NCBI GenBank assembly: GCA_017609985.1
Contig: JAFCCW010000014.1
Location: forward strand, 1 to 54,103
Direction of reading: 5' to 3'
Length of the DNA stretch: 54,103 bases
Origin: Candidatus Iainarchaeum sp.
Lineage (GTDB): Archaea > Iainarchaeota > Iainarchaeia > Iainarchaeales > JAFCCW01
Shown here one piece after another: positions 1 through 35,743 of this stretch. Made by a program: the position numbers and the translations under genes. The number at the start of each line of letters is the position of its first letter. The first letter of the stretch is position 1. The notes below the pieces were generated by a model. That model had not been told where the DNA came from, made no database searches, and was given only the letters and a program-made list of their open reading frames with translations.

Positions 1-21
1 TGTTTGAAATTCTGAATTTAG

Positions 22-57
22 TGGACGCGGGCGGATTCGAACCGCCGATTCCCGCAA
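22..57 (-). pseudogene. Orphan tRNA 3' half (3' anticodon stem, variable loop, T-arm, acceptor strand CGCGTCC-A; Ala-like U70)
   Basis: Minus strand reads T-TGCGG-GAATC-GGCGG-TTCGAAT-CCGCC-CGCGTCC-A; no adjacent 5' half. Confidence 0.75.
29..55. repeat. 27-bp direct repeat, second copy at 1171..1197 inside tRNA-Val(CAC)
   Basis: gggcggattcgaaccgccgattcccgc is identical at both positions. Confidence 0.95.
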
Positions 58-1098
58 TTAATTTGTTTTGAATGGCAGTGATAGTTTGGAGTATTTTTGA
101 TAATACTTAAGGACATCTTTTTTATTTAATAAGTTGCCTTTTAAATATTCCTTATATCTGATAATATGTCTTAAGTTTGAGCTTCCAACACAATCAAAAT
201 ATTTTTTAATCTTTTCAAAACTTCGGGTGCCAGTTTCAGTTTTGCTACTCTTAATTGTAAAAATATCATTCAAAAAAGAATTTTCTTTTAATTGATTTAA
301 CAAAGAAGGATTATGTGAACTAAATCTTATTGATAGGATTCCCCCATCTTTTGAAACACTCCCATCTGTGTCAATAAGTCCTCTCAAACAAGGGAAAAAA
401 TTTTCTTTGGACTCTTTAATTATTGGTGGCATTTTTGTTTTATTTTTAATTTTATTTCCAATTTTAAACTCAAGTTCTTTCTGAAAATAGCCACAGATAT
501 TTTTTGATCTTATTTCTAAATATAACTGGTTTGCAAATGGTTCTATTCTAATATCTGGACTAATATTAAACTTTTTTTGAACTAAACCAGTAAGATATTG
601 AAAATAAGGCAAATCAAATCTTTTGTCTCCGCTTATTCTAATGAAATATCGTGTTAGTGTGCCATCTCCTAAAATTGTTCCAAAAAGTTCTGCTATTTCC
701 CCATCAACTGTTTCTGGAATTGAAACTTTTTTTATGTTTCCTCCCGCAATGTTTGATTTTTTGAAACCCTGAGTTCGCCAATTATTTATAGTTTTAATAT
801 CATATTTCTTGAGCATGCATTTAATTCCTTTTTTTCCTGCAGAACTTTGCCACCAATTTGCAGGAATAATTTTATAATTGTATTTGGAGGTATCTATGTT
901 GCTGTATTCACAAAGAAGTTGAAAAACAGTCATTGGCAAAGTTTTTCTTTCTTGAAAATAATCTTTGAAAGAGGAATAATTCAAATTTATTGTCTGCCCA
1001 TAAGTTTCACAAAATTTTTTTAAACTAAGGTTGTTGGTAGCAGTAGAGATGAAAATTTTTTGTTCTCCTTTCTCAAATTTAACTCTCTTAATAACCAC
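58..1098 (-). CDS. Free-standing LAGLIDADG (DOD-type) homing endonuclease-like protein
   Basis: Two motifs, IAELFGTILGDGTL and CLRGLIDTDGSV; AT-rich. Start uncertain: GTG 1098 lies ~25 nt after a TTATAAA box, GTG 1131 is an alternative. Confidence 0.8.
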   Translation of the reverse strand: MVIKRVKFEKGEQKIFISTATNNLSLKKFCETYGQTINLNYSSFKDYFQERKTLPMTVFQLLCEYSNIDTSKYNYKIIPANWWQSSAGKKGIKCMLKKYDIKTINNWRTQGFKKSNIAGGNIKKVSIPETVDGEIAELFGTILGDGTLTRYFIRISGDKRFDLPYFQYLTGLVQKKFNISPDIRIEPFANQLYLEIRSKNICGYFQKELEFKIGNKIKNKTKMPPIIKESKENFFPCLRGLIDTDGSVSKDGGILSIRFSSHNPSLLNQLKENSFLNDIFTIKSSKTETGTRSFEKIKKYFDCVGSSNLRHIIRYKEYLKGNLLNKKDVLKYYQKYSKLSLPFKTN

Positions 1099-1163
1099 GA
1101 GATTATTTTGTTTTATGAAGTTTATAATCACTTTGAGACAGCAGACTTCCGTTGAATTATGGT

Positions 1164-1236
1164 TGGGAGAGGGCGGATTCGAACCGCCGATTCCCGCCAT
1201 GTGAAGGCGATGTCATAGCCACTAGACCACTCTCCC
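1164..1236 (-). tRNA. tRNA-Val(CAC)
   Basis: Acceptor GGGAGAG/CTCTCCC-A; anticodon arm TCGCC-TTCACAT-GGCGG; T-loop TTCGAAT. Confidence 0.95.
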
Positions 1237-1314
1237 GGAATGAGCATCCGCTAAAAGATTATTTAGTGCGTGCCTTCTTTAAAGCTTTATTTTTAGAAAA
1301 AGAAATTTCTTAAA

Positions 1315-1938
1315 TCAGTTTTTGCTGTTCTTTTTATTGAAAACAGCTCTCTTGCTTGGCCTGAGTTTTTCAGCACCTTTTCCCTTGTTTCTTAATCCTC
1401 TTCCTTTCTTTCCAGCCGAGGTTCTTCCTCTCTCTGCCCTTCCCTTGTGCTTTTCTGTTGAAAGCCATTTAGTTTTTTTGTCGTTTTTGACTGAAGGATG
1501 TGCTGTGTCAATCAGAATTACTTCATAGTACTTGCTTTTTCCATCTTGTCCTACAAGATAGCTGTTTAACACTTCACAATTTGGATACTTTTTTGAGGCT
1601 TTTTGTTCTGCCATGCTTTTAATTGAAATATTTCTTGTAAGCTTTTTTATTCCCATTCTTCTTGGTTTTCTTCCCTTTTTTGGTCTTGTGTGCATTCCAC
1701 TTCCTTTTCTGACGCGAACTCTTACAACAACATATCCCTGTTTTGCTTTGTAGCCAAGCTCTTTTGCTCTTGGAATATTCAATGGTTTTTCAACTCTTGC
1801 CACTGCCAGTGGCTCGCGCCTGAACTCTATCAGTCTTTGCCTGTAAAGGCTTTTGTAGTCGTAGTCTTCTGTTTTTTCGCCAGAAATCTCTTTTTGGAAT
1901 GTTTTCTTTATCGCATTTCCCGCATTCATTTCAATCAT
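1315..1938 (-). CDS. rpl15e: 50S ribosomal protein L15e
   Basis: RAKELGYKAKQGYVVVRVRVRKG, EVLNSYLVGQDGKSKYYEVILID, RGRTSAGKKGRGL. Confidence 0.95.
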   Translation of the reverse strand: MIEMNAGNAIKKTFQKEISGEKTEDYDYKSLYRQRLIEFRREPLAVARVEKPLNIPRAKELGYKAKQGYVVVRVRVRKGSGMHTRPKKGRKPRRMGIKKLTRNISIKSMAEQKASKKYPNCEVLNSYLVGQDGKSKYYEVILIDTAHPSVKNDKKTKWLSTEKHKGRAERGRTSAGKKGRGLRNKGKGAEKLRPSKRAVFNKKNSKN

Positions 1939-2064
1939 CTCAAAATCTCAAAAATTCAAAAAACAAGCGTTAAAAGCATCAAAATTCTTGTTTTAAATTT
2001 TTAAAAGCTCCATCTTTAAAGCTTTAATTATTACAAATTTAGTGAAAGAATGGTTTAAAAGGTT

Positions 2065-3009
2065 TTGGTTGTGCTCTCAAAAAAGTGTGAAAGATGCGAA
2101 AAGCCCGCGATTGTATTTCTTCCCTATGGTTCGCATAGTTTCTGCGCTGAACACTTTGTTTACTTTTTTGAAAAGCGGGTTAAGAAAAATATTAGGGTGA
2201 ATTCTCTTTTAAAACATGCTGAACACATTGCAGTAGCTTATTCTGGGGGAAAGGATTCAACAGCAACTCTTTTCATGCTTAATCAGATTTTTTCAAAGTC
2301 AAATAAGCTTTCAGCAATAATAATTGATGAGGGAATTCCTGGCTACAGAGACAAGGCAGTTAAAATAGCAGTAAAGAATTGCGAGTCCTGGAATATTCCC
2401 TTCAATCTTGTTTCGCTTGAAGAAGAACTAGGCTTTAGAATGATTGATGTAATGAAGAAACTTAAATCCTCTGATGAAACACTGGGGAGCAGTTGTTCTT
2501 ATTGCGGGGTACTGCGTCGTCAGCTCTTGAACAAAAAAGCTCTTGAGATAAAAGCAGACAAGCTTGCAACAGGCCACAATCTTGACGATGAATGCCAGAG
2601 CATTGCAATGAACTTTTTTGACAACAAACTTGATCAGTTTGTAAGGCTTGGCTCTGAAGTAAGGAATGATTCAATCAATTTTGTTCCAAGAATAAAACCA
2701 TTGTATAACACTCCAGAATCTGAAATAAAGCAGTATGTAAAAATTAAGAACATTCCTCACTTTTCCAAAAAAGCTTGTCCTCTTCGTCATGAAGCAAAGC
2801 GTTCTTTTTACAGAAAAATGATTGATAGTGCAGAAGAAGAGTTTCCCGGAACAAAGTATTCTATTCTCCGGTTCTTTCAGCAGTCAAAGCCATTGCTTGA
2901 AAAAGCATTCAAGCAAAAGAAATTAAGAGCTTGTGAAAAGTGTGGATTTCCTTCTTCTCAGAAAATATGCGGTTCTTGTCGTCAAATTTCCAAATTGCAA
3001 TCCCTTTAA
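2065..3009 (+). CDS. tRNA 2-thiolation PP-loop ATPase (TtuA/NcsA, TIGR00269-like)
   Basis: SGGKDS PP-loop, CSYCGVLRR, ATGHNLDDE, PRIKPL, N- and C-terminal zinc fingers. Confidence 0.88.
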   Translation: MVVLSKKCERCEKPAIVFLPYGSHSFCAEHFVYFFEKRVKKNIRVNSLLKHAEHIAVAYSGGKDSTATLFMLNQIFSKSNKLSAIIIDEGIPGYRDKAVKIAVKNCESWNIPFNLVSLEEELGFRMIDVMKKLKSSDETLGSSCSYCGVLRRQLLNKKALEIKADKLATGHNLDDECQSIAMNFFDNKLDQFVRLGSEVRNDSINFVPRIKPLYNTPESEIKQYVKIKNIPHFSKKACPLRHEAKRSFYRKMIDSAEEEFPGTKYSILRFFQQSKPLLEKAFKQKKLRACEKCGFPSSQKICGSCRQISKLQSL

Positions 3010-3037
3010 AAAATTTAACCTGAACAAATTTATTCAA

Positions 3038-3054
3038 GGGCCCGTGGTCTAGCG
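3038..3054 (+). pseudogene. Orphan tRNA 5' fragment upstream of tRNA-Val(GAC)
   Basis: GGGCCCGTGGTCTAGCG resembles GGGCCTGTGGTCTAATG at 3082 (13 of the first 14 nt identical). Confidence 0.55.
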
Positions 3055-3081
3055 TTGTTAGATCTCGGGAAAAATGTATTT

Positions 3082-3153
3082 GGGCCTGTGGTCTAATGGT
3101 TATGATGTATCGTTGACATCGATACGAAGAGAGTTCAATTCTCTCCAGGCCCA
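3082..3153 (+). tRNA. tRNA-Val(GAC)
   Basis: Acceptor GGGCCTG/CAGGCCC-A; anticodon arm TATCG-TTGACAT-CGATA; T-arm GAGAG-TTCAATT-CTCTC. Confidence 0.93.
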
Positions 3154-3182
3154 TTATATTCTCTTCTTCAAAAAAACAGTTT

Positions 3183-4718
3183 CTATTTTTTCTTTCCCTT
3201 TTTCTTCTTTAATTCAATCTTTTCAATCGCTATTCCCATTTCTTCTGCAAATGCTTTTTCAAATGCATCAAGTTCTTCAATCTTTTTGTCAATCTTTGCA
3301 ATCCTTGAATTAACCTGCCCATCCACTTGTTTTGCTTGCTCGTTTACTTTTGAGATTGCTTCGTTGTACTTGCTTACGTTTTGTTCAATTACTTTAATGA
3401 ACTGTTCCTTGAATGCGTCAAGTTCCTCTGTTGCTGTTGAAAGTTTTTCAATATCAATTCCTTTTTCTATCCTTGTTTTTACTGCTTCAAGTCCTGCTTC
3501 TGATTTCTTTATTTCTTTGTCGGTTTTTTTCCTGTAAAGAGTGAATAGTTCTGCTGCGTCTTTTTTTGTTTCTTCCATTTTTTTGCTGATGCTTTGTTCA
3601 ATATACTCTGAAATTCCTGTTTTCATTTCCTCTATTTTGTGAGCATATCTGTTGTCAAGACTTTTTTCAAGCTGTTCCAGTCTTGAAACCAGTTTCCTGA
3701 TTTTTTCTGGTTCTACTTGGTCTTCTATTCCCTTCAATTCAGCTATTGCTGCTCCGACTTTTACTGAAAGCTCTTCGCTTTTTTCAAGAGAAATTTCATC
3801 TATCTTGTCCTGTGCATCTTTTATCAGGCCCTCTGCTATCTTGCTTTCCAGTTCCAGGGTTCTTGAAACACGTGAGTCAATCTCTCCCATTTTCTTTTCT
3901 GCATTGTCTAAAAATTCCTGTGCCTGACTCTTGCTCTTTATTAGCTCGCTGTTCATGTCAGTTACAAGCTCTTGCTTGACAGTGCGAAGCTCTTCAAGTT
4001 TTGATTCAAATTCTGCAACAACTTTTTTTTGCTCTTCTCTTTTTAGTTCCATTTCTGCAATGTTTTCTTTAATTTCTTTGTTTAACTCTTTTAACTCGCT
4101 TACCTTGCTGTCAACTACACTCTCTATTTCTTTTGCCTTGTCTTCTAGCTCGGTTTCAACCTTGCTTGTCAGAAGAGTTTTTTGTGACTCAAACAAAATC
4201 CTTACTTTGTCGGTCTCCAGCGTTATTGCTTCAGAAATTTTTTCTTCAAGCTGGTTGTCAACTTCTTTCTTTATTTTTTTCATTTCTTCAAGTTTCTGGT
4301 CAACAGTTGTAAGAATTCCTTTTTCCCACAGTTTTGAAAGATTTGCGTGAACATGCACGTCCTCTTTTGATTGTGCTGATGAAATAAGGGGTGTGAGTGA
4401 AGGAATTTTTTTTTCCTCTTTGTTTGCTTCAATCAAATCTGTTTTGCTCTGGTCTTTGTTTATCTCAGTTAATTGGTCTTTGGGAACAGCAGTTGTTGCA
4501 AGTGTCTCAGCCACGTCCCTCATAACCTTTCCGCTGTCTGCTTTTTGTTTTATTTCTTTTTCTGCAATAGGCTTCTTTTTTGCCTCTGCAAGAAGTTGTT
4601 TTGCTTCCTCTGATTCAATTCCCACGTCTCGCAGGTTTAGGATTATTTCTCTGTCGGAAACATTGAGGGCAATCAGTTTCTTGATTGACTCCAGTATTAT
4701 TTCTTTTTTTCTGGACAT
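3183..4718 (-). CDS. Long coiled-coil protein with small N-terminal helical domain
   Basis: ~510-aa E/K-rich heptad sequence with basic tail; no ATPase motifs. Confidence 0.8.
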   Translation of the reverse strand: MSRKKEIILESIKKLIALNVSDREIILNLRDVGIESEEAKQLLAEAKKKPIAEKEIKQKADSGKVMRDVAETLATTAVPKDQLTEINKDQSKTDLIEANKEEKKIPSLTPLISSAQSKEDVHVHANLSKLWEKGILTTVDQKLEEMKKIKKEVDNQLEEKISEAITLETDKVRILFESQKTLLTSKVETELEDKAKEIESVVDSKVSELKELNKEIKENIAEMELKREEQKKVVAEFESKLEELRTVKQELVTDMNSELIKSKSQAQEFLDNAEKKMGEIDSRVSRTLELESKIAEGLIKDAQDKIDEISLEKSEELSVKVGAAIAELKGIEDQVEPEKIRKLVSRLEQLEKSLDNRYAHKIEEMKTGISEYIEQSISKKMEETKKDAAELFTLYRKKTDKEIKKSEAGLEAVKTRIEKGIDIEKLSTATEELDAFKEQFIKVIEQNVSKYNEAISKVNEQAKQVDGQVNSRIAKIDKKIEELDAFEKAFAEEMGIAIEKIELKKKKGKKK

Positions 4719-4764
4719 CAAGAATAAAGTAGTTCTTTTAGTATAAAAAATTAGTGTTTGCGTT

Positions 4765-24103: not shown

Positions 24104-24214
24104 CCTGCTCACTTTAGCCTAAATTCATTAATAAAATTTATGTTGCCTTTTTTGTAAAACCCTGCTCGAGCTTTGCTCGAATAGGCATATCCTGTTTGCG
24201 GAATATTGAGGCAA

Positions 24215-24288
24215 TGGGCACGGGCGGATTTGAACCGCCGACCCTTGGTGTATAAGACCAATGCTCCGCCAGACTAAGCTACGCGCCC
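24215..24288 (-). tRNA. tRNA-Ile(TAT)
   Basis: Acceptor GGGCGCG/CGTGCCC-A; anticodon arm TTGGT-CTTATAC-ACCAA; T-loop TTCAAAT. Confidence 0.9.
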
Positions 24289-24295
24289 AAAAAAA

Positions 24296-34096: not shown

Positions 34097-35743
34097 TCAG
34101 CTTCCCTTGTTTATTTCTGCTTCAATCATTTCTGGAGTCACTGCTTTGTGGTCTCTGAGCTTTACGAGAACAAAGTTGTATGCCTTTACTGTGTCTTCAA
34201 GGCTTAGCTTTCTTTTGAATCCAATTCTTGCAACTTCGCTGAAGTAGGTGTTCACGATGTTGTGAGCCAGCTGTTCTCTTGGCAATCCCTCGCCTGCAGG
34301 CATTTCTTCAATCTTTTCGTTGAGGCTCCTGATTTCTCTCTTGAGCTGTTCCAACTCGCTGATTGTTTCCTGCTCTGCTTCTTCAACTTCTTTCTCAAGC
34401 TCTTCTGTTTTCATTTTTTCAAGATCTGAATCGCCTGATTCAATCTCCACTGAAGTGATGCTATTTCTGATTGCATCCATTTCTTTGGAGAAGTCTTCCT
34501 TGATTTTTTGAACTTCTTTGGCCAGCTCTTCTCTGTATTCTGTTGGGCTTGCAGTTTTTGCTATTTCAATTTCTGCACCCATCTTGAGCATTTTTTCGTT
34601 AAGGTTTCCCTTTAGGTCTTCAACAAGTCCTTTTATTTCGTTCATTCTTTTGTCAAGTTTCTCGTCCACAAGCTCTTCAATGTTTTCTGGTCTTGCAACC
34701 TGGTTAACTATGTTGCCAAGTTCTGCTGTCTCAGTTCTTGTCTGTTTAACTATTTCGCTGAGCTTGTTCATTTCTCCAAGAGCTTTTGTGGTTTTTTCAG
34801 TGCTTGTTTTTATTACATTCATGCTGTTTCCAATCGCGCCGATTTTGCTTGAAATTTCATTCAGTCTCTTTCCATATTCCTGCTCTGTCTGTTTCTGCAT
34901 TTTGTCGTGGTCTTCAAGTTTTTTTACAGCAGTTGTAACTGCTTTGTCAAAGCTTGAGAGTTGTTTTTCAAGCAGTTCTGATTTTTTGACTCCTGTTTCT
35001 ACTCCTGTCTTCATGCTGTTCACACTTCTCTGGATTGTGGAGAGCTTTGAGGAAACAGAGTTTACTTTGCCTGTATTGTTGTTAATCATTTTTCTAAGAG
35101 CGTCTGCTCTTCCTGTTTCTCCTTTCAAGCTTTTCTCCATTGCATTAACTGTTTTCTCAAGTGAAGAAACAGACTTGTCAATTCCGCTGATTTTTGTTAC
35201 CTGTGTTCTAAGCGGGGTTGCAAGATTTATGTAAGCAACTTTTTTGCTTTCAACTTTTTTCTTAACTGCTTTTTTAGCAGGGTTTTTCTTCTTAACTGCT
35301 TTTGCAACAGTTTTCTTTTTGATTGGGCTTGCCTTTTTCACAGCTGATTTTTTCTTTGCTGGTTTTTTTGCAACAGCCTTTTTCACTGCTTTTTTTGCAG
35401 TTCCTGCTCCGCTCACGTTCACATTAACTTCAACCTTGCTAACGCCTGCTTTCTTCACTGCTGGCGTTTTATTAACTGCGGCTTTTTTGGCAGTTGTTTT
35501 CTTTTTCCCAGCTGGTTTTTTTGCAACAGCCTTCTTTTTAATTGGGGCTTTTTTAGAAACAGTTTTCTTCACAACAGTTTTCTTTACTGCTGGCTTTTTC
35601 TTAACAGCCTTTTTCACAGCAGACTTTTTGCCTGATTCCTTTTTTGATTTATCATTGATCGTAACATTTACTTTCTTTCCGCCCTTTACAGTGATTGTTT
35701 CATTCCCACTTTTAACAGTAACAACATCTTTTGCTTTTGCCAT
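34097..35743 (-). CDS. Protein with histone H1-like Lys/Ala/Val repeats, long coiled coil and small C-terminal domain
   Basis: KKAVAKKPA-type repeats over ~135 aa, then heptads. Confidence 0.8.
   Translation of the reverse strand: MAKAKDVVTVKSGNETITVKGGKKVNVTINDKSKKESGKKSAVKKAVKKKPAVKKTVVKKTVSKKAPIKKKAVAKKPAGKKKTTAKKAAVNKTPAVKKAGVSKVEVNVNVSGAGTAKKAVKKAVAKKPAKKKSAVKKASPIKKKTVAKAVKKKNPAKKAVKKKVESKKVAYINLATPLRTQVTKISGIDKSVSSLEKTVNAMEKSLKGETGRADALRKMINNNTGKVNSVSSKLSTIQRSVNSMKTGVETGVKKSELLEKQLSSFDKAVTTAVKKLEDHDKMQKQTEQEYGKRLNEISSKIGAIGNSMNVIKTSTEKTTKALGEMNKLSEIVKQTRTETAELGNIVNQVARPENIEELVDEKLDKRMNEIKGLVEDLKGNLNEKMLKMGAEIEIAKTASPTEYREELAKEVQKIKEDFSKEMDAIRNSITSVEIESGDSDLEKMKTEELEKEVEEAEQETISELEQLKREIRSLNEKIEEMPAGEGLPREQLAHNIVNTYFSEVARIGFKRKLSLEDTVKAYNFVLVKLRDHKAVTPEMIEAEINKGS

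Follow-up and report, generated by a model that had tools for sequence, protein, structure and literature searches.

SegB is a free-standing GIY-YIG homing endonuclease that is encoded in the tRNA gene cluster of phage T4 and performs intron-less homing, and in fungal mitochondria mobile endonuclease open reading frames (ORFs) bring a replacement gene end with them and leave the old end behind. Here we describe a locus that shares features with both, at one end of a 54,103-nucleotide (nt) contig of Candidatus Iainarchaeum sp. (JAFCCW010000014.1; hereafter the window, which is the entire contig C27 of genome G000, an assembly of 1.16 Mb in 37 contigs that is 86.6% complete). In it, a LAGLIDADG nuclease gene lies directly downstream of an intact tRNA-Val(CAC) gene and ends against an orphan tRNA 3′ half. 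We consider that this is probably an active, tRNA-linked homing endonuclease gene, inserted 3′ of the resident tRNA-Val(CAC), with a dead tRNA stump at the far end of the insertion.

The likeness to SegB lies in a stand-alone nuclease gene located by tRNA genes, with presumed spread via break repair and co-conversion of the flanks; unlike the phage system, the window gene belongs to the LAGLIDADG family and to a set of cellular genomes in which there is a subfamily per tRNA species, the end of the family's ORF often extends into the tRNA, and tRNA stumps remain behind. As with the fungal mitochondrial ORFs, an essential gene is invaded, its function is kept by a duplicated segment and the displaced remnant stays, but the fungal targets are organelle protein-coding genes, whereas those of the window's family would be tRNA genes of DPANN archaea and Candidate Phyla Radiation (CPR) bacteria. 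The archaeal nucleases I-DmoI, I-Tsp061I, PI-PfuI and TliVMA have the same monomeric double-motif fold with conserved catalytic aspartates, and also target highly conserved genes. They reside inside rRNA or protein-coding genes, however, while the window gene neighbours a tRNA gene, lies outside any intron or intein, and encodes an additional N-terminal domain of ~125 amino acids (aa). Archaeal group I introns with LAGLIDADG ORFs are, in the part of that work available to us, all in rRNA genes (Nawrocki et al. 2018, PMC6125680).

The closest case that we found in a full-text literature search, which returned no description of a tRNA-linked LAGLIDADG family, is the tRNA-Thr(GGU) locus of Caldiarchaeum subterraneum, which consists of a tRNA 5′ fragment, a 1.87-kb insert and a complete tRNA (Sugahara et al. 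2012, PMC3293823). According to the available sections of that paper, the insert holds an 813-bp ORF directly before the complete same-strand tRNA, the population is heterogeneous at the locus, and paralogous ORFs occur elsewhere, one of them beside tRNA-Thr(CGU); the authors annotated the ORF as a putative DNA recombinase and attributed the insert to a pNOB8-type plasmid. This is a single locus for which those sections give no LAGLIDADG or homing reading, and where it has a 5′ fragment, the window has a downstream 3′ half and an intact tRNA upstream. As in the SSV1 and pNOB8-type elements discussed in the same sections (PMC3293823), the window tRNA stays intact and there is a direct repeat of its 3′ part at the far end of the insert; unlike those elements, the window insert is without an integrase and consists of a single 1.1-kb nuclease gene. 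The tRNA-linked LAGLIDADG family appears to be undescribed.

The nuclease gene and its setting

Read along the minus strand, the locus comprises an A/T-rich promoter-like stretch, tRNA-Val(CAC) (1236-1164), a 32-nt spacer, the ORF down to its TAA stop codon (60-58) and a 36-nt tRNA 3′ half (57-22). The positions given in the original prediction, which was made from the sequence alone, are all correct, and ARAGORN and Rfam agree on the intact tRNA. The features of the locus are:

1276-1296, minus strand: putative promoter of the tRNA and perhaps of a joint tRNA-nuclease transcript, a TATA-like A/T-rich stretch ~40-60 nt upstream of the tRNA, picked out by eye
1164-1236, minus strand: intact tRNA-Val(CAC) (ARAGORN; Rfam tRNA model, 61.7 bits)
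1142-1156, minus strand: degenerate copy of the TTCACCGGAAATC motif, in the spacer that separates the tRNA from the ORF
58-1131, minus strand: free-standing LAGLIDADG homing endonuclease gene, 357 aa (Pfam, alignments, structure model, Foldseek)
658-693, minus strand: LAGLIDADG motif 1, AELFGTILGDGT (homologue alignments)
358-390, minus strand: LAGLIDADG motif 2, CLRGLIDTDGS (homologue alignments)
22-57, minus strand: orphan tRNA 3′ half, tRNA positions 38-73 (sequence alignment to tRNA-Val)
29-55, minus strand: 27-nt exact direct repeat of 1171-1197, tRNA positions 40-66 (exact repeat search)
1-93, no strand: overlap; the same 93 nt form the end of contig C9, which joins C27 to C9

The ORF had been predicted to be AT-rich with two LAGLIDADG motifs, and this was borne out: its GC content is 28.1%, against 38.9% window-wide, both motifs are present, and the Pfam family LAGLIDADG_3 matches at 31 bits (cut-off 22.5), covering residues 249-320 only. 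NCBIfam gave a weak match only, to the intein region of a V-ATPase model. The frame is open over 58-1200(-) and has no ATG; it likely starts at the GTG at 1131, with an alternative GTG at 1098 according to the N-termini of homologues. Across 50 homologues, the motif 1 aspartate D156 is conserved in at least 90% and the motif 2 aspartate D256 is invariant.

The structure model (predicted local distance difference test score, pLDDT, 92.5) places a helical domain of ~125 aa at the N-terminus, ahead of a double LAGLIDADG core. At E values of 1e-8 to 1e-5, Foldseek matched it to the endonuclease domains of TliVMA (E 1.2e-8) and PI-PfuI, to I-Tsp061I (template modelling score, TM, normalised to the target 0.69) and to I-DmoI (0.56-0.64), with bI3 maturase and WhiA also among the matches; sequence similarity to solved chains is marginal, the best being PI-PfuI at E 0.0015. 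The double alpha-beta-beta-alpha-beta-beta-alpha fold is seen in the model and in its Foldseek matches, and the ORF product is accordingly modelled as folding like an I-DmoI/I-Tsp061I-type nuclease. No Rfam intron family matched positions 1-1400 at E <= 10 and the ORF is not embedded in any host protein, which agrees with the earlier view that the endonuclease is free-standing, outside any intron or intein. We conclude that the ORF is a free-standing LAGLIDADG homing endonuclease gene that is probably still active. A variant 3′ end of this gene exists in another sample: a contig from sequencing run X2 is identical to the window on 150-255 and has 57 differing letters before 150.

A layout so close to a contig end could be an artefact of assembly, a chimeric join made via the shared tRNA T arm, and there are signs that might be taken for one: only 21 nt separate the fragment from the contig start, the assembly is interrupted at this point with an overlap of 93 nt where elsewhere the overlap is 114 nt, and the run X2 contig diverges after its identical stretch. 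We nevertheless give this explanation almost no credence. The last 93 nt of contig C9 are the first 93 nt of C27, so that the two contigs are contiguous: on one side of the stump is the ORF end, and on the other a convergent ORF of C9 (44 aa, Cys-rich), the stop codon of which lies at window 13-15, 6 nt beyond the stump. C9 and C27 thus each carry the stump plus 36 nt of the ORF end, and this layout is found again in assemblies independent of G000 (L055, and L135 and L136 from two metagenomes). A repeat-mediated join, moreover, cannot build the layout, because the ORF sits between both copies of the repeat. The original prediction had allowed that the repeat might be a misassembly junction; with an overlap that spans the stump and with those independent assemblies in agreement, it is not. 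The odd overlap length beside the stump may point to variants of the ORF 3′ end in the population. Exact contig-end overlaps occur elsewhere in G000 as well (seven other pairs, all of 114 nt, beside the 93 nt of C9-C27), which makes scaffolding feasible.

The orphan tRNA 3′ half

Base 57, next after the TAA at 58-60, aligns with position 38 of tRNA-Val, as had been predicted, and the fragment runs from there to the discriminator at 22; it contains the 3′ strand of the anticodon stem, the variable loop, the whole T arm, the acceptor 3′ strand and a discriminator A, and carries no anticodon. Over positions 38-73 it is identical to tRNA-Val(CAC) at 32/36 positions, the runner-up among the tRNAs of the genome being Leu(CAG) at 28/36. 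That tRNA-Val(CAC) is the sole CAC isoacceptor found in G000 and has an unusual acceptor stem, GGGAGAG/CTCTCCC. Rfam recognises only a local T-arm match in the stump (30-47, 12.5 bits). The 27-nt repeat on which the prediction leaned is indeed exact, but its specificity for this tRNA is less than its length suggests: 20-21 nt of it (the T arm and one base) are common to at least 6 other tRNAs of the genome, so only ~9 further bases are specific. The repeat stops short of the acceptor strand, where the two copies differ at 3/7 positions, and the stump would need a 5′ strand that the intact tRNA does not have; this mismatch, too, had been seen correctly. A stretch of 35 nt of the stump, allowing up to 3 mismatches, was matched in this genome only among 196 genomes of the order, and an exact 46-nt piece of the tRNA-Val(CAC) gene had no match in metagenome contigs.

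Some features of the fragment would suit a working exon, whether the 3′ half of a split (trans-spliced) tRNA or the 3′ part of a tRNA whose very long intron holds the nuclease gene: it begins at position 38, the canonical archaeal intron and split site, its T arm is perfect, and the stump of the nearest homologue begins at the same place. Non-canonical tRNA introns are common in relatives, and tRNAs for Trp, Tyr, Arg(CCU) and Arg(CCG) were not found in the 86.6% complete genome. A partner half is what such a tRNA requires, and in this genome, complete to that extent, no 5′ half was found. Regex scans for complementary acceptor and anticodon-stem strands gave 30 matches, none with a D arm; the A/T-rich leader has no complement beside tRNA-like sequence elsewhere in the genome; and the fold of 1-140(-) is a T-arm hairpin only (z = -0.82), with no leader helix and no bulge-helix-bulge (BHB) motif. 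Two candidate 5′ halves that are exact complements (C8:766 and C26:10033) were rejected for want of a D arm and of any Rfam tRNA signal, and leader matches of 13-17 nt elsewhere are coding or intergenic and show no tRNA features. What precedes the ORF is a tRNA that is complete and different; the tRNA closest to the fragment, Val(CAC), is intact, as are Val(GAC) and Val(UAC) in this genome; and stumps of 17-23 nt in relatives are too short to function as halves. The coincidence with position 38 is itself weak as a clue to a canonical intron site, because the stumps of other relatives begin later, at about positions 51-57.

In the variant of this explanation that the original prediction put forward, the fragment would be the 3′ exon of a split or intron-containing tRNA-Ala, in keeping with an Ala-type U70. 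That does not hold: three tRNA-Ala genes are intact in the genome and the fragment matches them at 23-25/36 positions, while U70 is compatible with the A3-U70 pair of related tRNA-Val(CAC) genes. With neither a 5′ half, nor a complementary leader, nor a BHB motif found in the genome, and no integrase at the locus, both the split-tRNA and the tRNA-Ala explanations are left unsupported, and we regard a working exon as highly improbable. As a separate observation on the tRNAs of this genome, a tRNA-Ile with anticodon UAU is located at window 24214-24289(-), in addition to the tRNA-Ile(GAU) on contig C35, and the search of the genome turned up just two CAU tRNAs.

The orphan 3′ half is, instead, most likely a non-functional tRNA-Val stump, and it marks the far end of a homing-endonuclease insertion. 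It may derive either from the displaced 3′ part of the invaded tRNA gene, or from the tRNA of an ancestral cassette.

Relatives of the window gene place this stump in a series. In the FastTree phylogeny the window's clade comprises L135/L136 (58% identity), L055, L056 and L057 (the locus of genome G039), and in every member tRNA-Val(CAC) precedes the ORF while no complete tRNA comes after it. In sister branches the family's usual layout is found, the ORF running into a complete tRNA-Val(CAC), and in L141 both sides are occupied, by Val(CAC) upstream and Val(GAC) downstream. The stumps are:

Window: 36 nt, abutting the stop codon
L135/L136: ~36 nt, 19-20 nt past the stop codon, with the same five starting bases as in the window
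L056: 36 nt, at +230
L055: 23 nt, downstream of the ORF
L210 (partial ORF): 17 nt, downstream of the ORF
L149 and L082: 13-15 nt, weak

No stump was found downstream of the ORF in L057. All of the stumps retain the extreme 3′ end of the tRNA and are trimmed to varying extents on the 5′ side, beginning, in our own alignment to the tRNA, at position 38 in the window and L135/L136 and later in other relatives.

Partial tRNA copies are found in other arrangements too. A complete tRNA is followed by a 3′ fragment in L080, L089, L090, L094, L084, L063 and L077; in all of these a second 3′ part lies directly after a complete tRNA-Val(GAC) and, as read from the sequences, it starts at approximately position 26 (L080), 28 (L089), 27 (L090), 38 (L094) and 33 (L084), or consists of the T arm and acceptor strand only (L063 and L077). 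The first 13-15 nt of the tRNA are duplicated upstream of the ORF in L059 and L099. In L063 the upstream 5′ and downstream 3′ fragments pair at 6/7 positions in the acceptor stem, apparently one resident tRNA split by a cassette of nuclease gene plus complete tRNA. In L109 three successive copies of a tRNA 3′-end fragment lie ~90-300 nt past the ORF stop codon, as if from repeated rounds of insertion. By a strict count, which accepts fragments of at least 12 nt with at least 92% identity to the adjacent tRNA, 87 loci yielded 4 fragments upstream and 5 downstream, and a control with the reversed tRNA yielded none on either side. The survey of flanks that the original prediction had proposed therefore does find partial tRNA duplicates recurring beside relatives (9 in 87 loci, 0 in the control).

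A tRNA-linked family with filled and empty sites

Homologues were searched for in 61 genomes of the order and matched in 42, at 0-6 per genome, with 19 genomes lacking the gene; among the same-order loci a tRNA abuts an ORF end in 30/32, the exceptions being L012 and L026. A scan of genome contigs with the single protein found no relative, and an alignment-based scan then succeeded, with 482 relatives among species-representative genomes and at least 549 among metagenomes. From each set the best 80 were examined: of these 160 loci, 11 with identical ORFs were dropped (leaving 149), as were 12 with no stop codon or less than 100 nt downstream, so that 137, from DPANN archaea and CPR bacteria, were evaluable. 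In 112/137 the start of a same-strand tRNA lies between -45 and +35 nt of the stop codon, typically with an ORF-tRNA overlap of 9-15 nt that puts the stop codon within the D loop; by our own arithmetic, from 44 tRNA matches in 1.16 Mb, chance adjacency would be ~0.2%. An opposite-strand tRNA is present in 3/137. ARAGORN called no tRNA at 16 loci, and 12 of these 16 have a downstream T arm and a matching 5′ acceptor strand; these are probably intron-containing tRNAs that it overlooked. The homologues are thus tied to tRNA genes, the opposite of the lack of association by which the original prediction would have fallen.

In a FastTree phylogeny of 113 proteins, the grouping of which was read without inspection of support values, sequences group by tRNA, namely Ser (CPR bacteria), Gln, and Val (DPANN archaea). 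Each subfamily lives at one tRNA gene, in a large family of DPANN archaea and CPR bacteria, and the nuclease family crosses the boundary between archaea and bacteria. The CPR loci L096, L097, L100, L107, L108, L112 and L113, and further L121, L123-L125, L127 and L131, have a tRNA-Ser (mostly GCU) directly after the family ORF. Introns of 30-40 nt in the D-loop region were seen in the tRNA-Val of several relatives (L003, L005, L002/L057, L059 and L220, the last in genome G013); they sit near where the ORF ends in the usual layout, and ARAGORN miscalls or misses such tRNAs. At L009 it calls a 1186-nt intron that holds the ORF, and there is a separate tRNA-like 5′ end ~60 nt past the ORF.

The comparison of filled and empty sites, which the original prediction had called for, succeeded in relatives. 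In G013, of the same genus as G039 and with an empty site, tRNA-Val(CAC) is followed by 3 nt and then the ATG of the next gene; in G039, ~1.15 kb (a 5′ region and the ORF) separates this tRNA end from the ATG, fitting exactly between the two. The 5′ exon of tRNA-Val(CAC) is identical in G039 and G013, from which it follows that the resident tRNA was kept in this pair. At the insert's far end in G039 the nuclease stop codon overlaps the ATG of the next gene (L057 3050-3065, ATGCGTAA). A tRNA-Thr(CGT) site is likewise filled in G029 and empty in G192. In G008 a homologue is flanked by a PP-loop ATPase gene and by tRNA-Val(GAC). The locus is syntenic with window 1315-4721, and the window counterpart of that insertion is 71 nt only and has no homologue. 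Downstream of the L15e gene G008 has no tRNA-Val(CAC) and synteny is lost on that side, so it provides no empty site for the window insertion. At the window's own site the comparison gave a hint only, an 861-nt contig from run X1 that aligns to 1163-1609 with 15 differences, all outside the tRNA, and whose remaining 414 nt are unlike the window. It comes from a search of sequencing runs in which only two had a 0.05 share of words and their contigs leave 1-87 and most of the ORF (523-1131) uncovered. The prediction that the gene spreads with a replacement tRNA and leaves displaced halves behind therefore fares unevenly: partial duplicates do recur, as it supposed, but in the G039/G013 pair the resident tRNA was kept and not replaced.

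A duplicated tRNA part at either end of an insert is also what the attL and attR sites of an SSV1 or pNOB8-type element would leave, with the nuclease as cargo of an integrase-type element now reduced to a remnant. No integrase gene or fragment exists between the repeats or nearby, however (none in the first 4 kb of the window, nor in the last 1.6 kb of C9), in accordance with the original prediction; the insert contains the nuclease ORF only, the same single-ORF layout recurs in dozens of genomes, and the repeat ends before the acceptor strand, where the copies differ. An integrative element is thus extremely improbable here. The three integrase matches in G000 are all on contigs other than C27 and C9. 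One tyrosine integrase gene, on C37 (35558-36052), lies ~460 nt downstream of tRNA-Asn (35021-35094); this locus may be a classical integrative element, unrelated to the nuclease locus.

Several points weigh against an active homing gene at the window site. No nuclease-free allele of the window's species was recovered, and the cleavage by the enzyme and its target site are what we infer. The acceptor strand of the stump does not pair with the 5′ strand of the intact tRNA, so a simple origin as the displaced half of the tRNA now in place does not account for the stump. The stumps of the clade are alike (T stem GGCGG/CCGCC; start TGCGG in the window and L135), and the local intact tRNAs of L055 and L135 differ from these shared features, which favours inheritance of the stump with the cassette; the window stump is nonetheless nearest to its own neighbour tRNA, a likeness that may be due to gene conversion or to the common T arm of the genome. 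Stumps are detectable in a minority of family loci only, so that most insertions would be old or traceless. Finally, the junction of gene and tRNA is very tight and conserved, which is compatible with a host function.

That last point leads to the possibility that the gene has been domesticated, as a DNA-binding regulator or as a maturase or WhiA-like RNA chaperone, and is immobile, with the stump a result of incidental decay. The conserved junction, with a stop codon inside the tRNA 5′ end, would be in keeping with this, as would the spread of the family over two domains, the extra N-terminal helical domain, the Foldseek matches to bI3 maturase and WhiA, and a motif in front of the gene that is common to the promoters of replication and repair genes. 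Against this, congeneric genomes differ in the presence of the gene at the same site, its copy number ranges from 0 to 6 and 19/61 genomes are without it; its GC content is low, both catalytic aspartates are retained and tRNA stumps lie beside it. We therefore regard domestication as unlikely.

Proposed homing route and its implications

For an active homing endonuclease gene, we propose that the enzyme would cut the DNA of a nuclease-free tRNA-Val gene, probably in or near the anticodon arm, and that the break would be repaired from the nuclease-bearing copy, with the intact tRNA as left homology arm and the stump or flank as the right one. The host would retain one working tRNA, and the insertion would thereby be tolerated. 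No promoter is evident for the nuclease gene itself, which is probably transcribed from that of the tRNA and freed by 3′ processing of the tRNA.

The TTCACCGGAAATC motif, of which a degenerate copy precedes the ORF, has four strong copies in G000 (C29:28666(-), C23:40594(+), C18:38436(+) and C18:11386(-)), 57-201 nt upstream of the ATG of genes for MCM, a PD-(D/E)XK nuclease and two unnamed proteins, where they stand just before TATA-like boxes. Clear copies also occur in the 5′ regions of ~12 Iainarchaeum-type homologue loci. The motif may be a regulatory site of a replication/repair regulon, and presumably resembles origin recognition boxes. A reading of the motif before the ORF as a decayed T arm was dropped, because the strong copies precede unrelated genes.

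It is conceivable, although we hold it to be doubtful, that the stump is itself a part of the selfish element, serving both as right homology arm and as a device against loss, and that the TTCACCGGAAATC-like motif times expression of the nuclease. As a homology arm, the stump would have kept its tRNA-likeness for homing into naive tRNA-Val genes. As an anti-loss device, it would work through recombination between the 27-nt repeats, which would delete the nuclease and fuse the tRNA to an acceptor strand mismatched at 3/7 pairs; such a fusion would kill the only tRNA-Val(CAC). Timing by the motif would have the nuclease expressed at replication or repair, with a repair template present.

If these enzymes do cut tRNA genes, they would constitute a large natural set of LAGLIDADG nucleases with targets readable from genome context, one tRNA species per subfamily, which would be useful for specificity studies and for nuclease engineering. 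For annotation, orphan tRNA halves beside such genes should not be called split tRNAs unless a partner is found. A mobile element has been proposed before for one disrupted tRNA locus (Sugahara et al. 2012, PMC3293823, in the sections available). The family described here, if it homes as we propose, would provide a concrete mechanism for the duplication, fragmentation and replacement of tRNA genes in small-genome archaea and bacteria, and would bear on the debate over the origin of split and disrupted tRNA genes.

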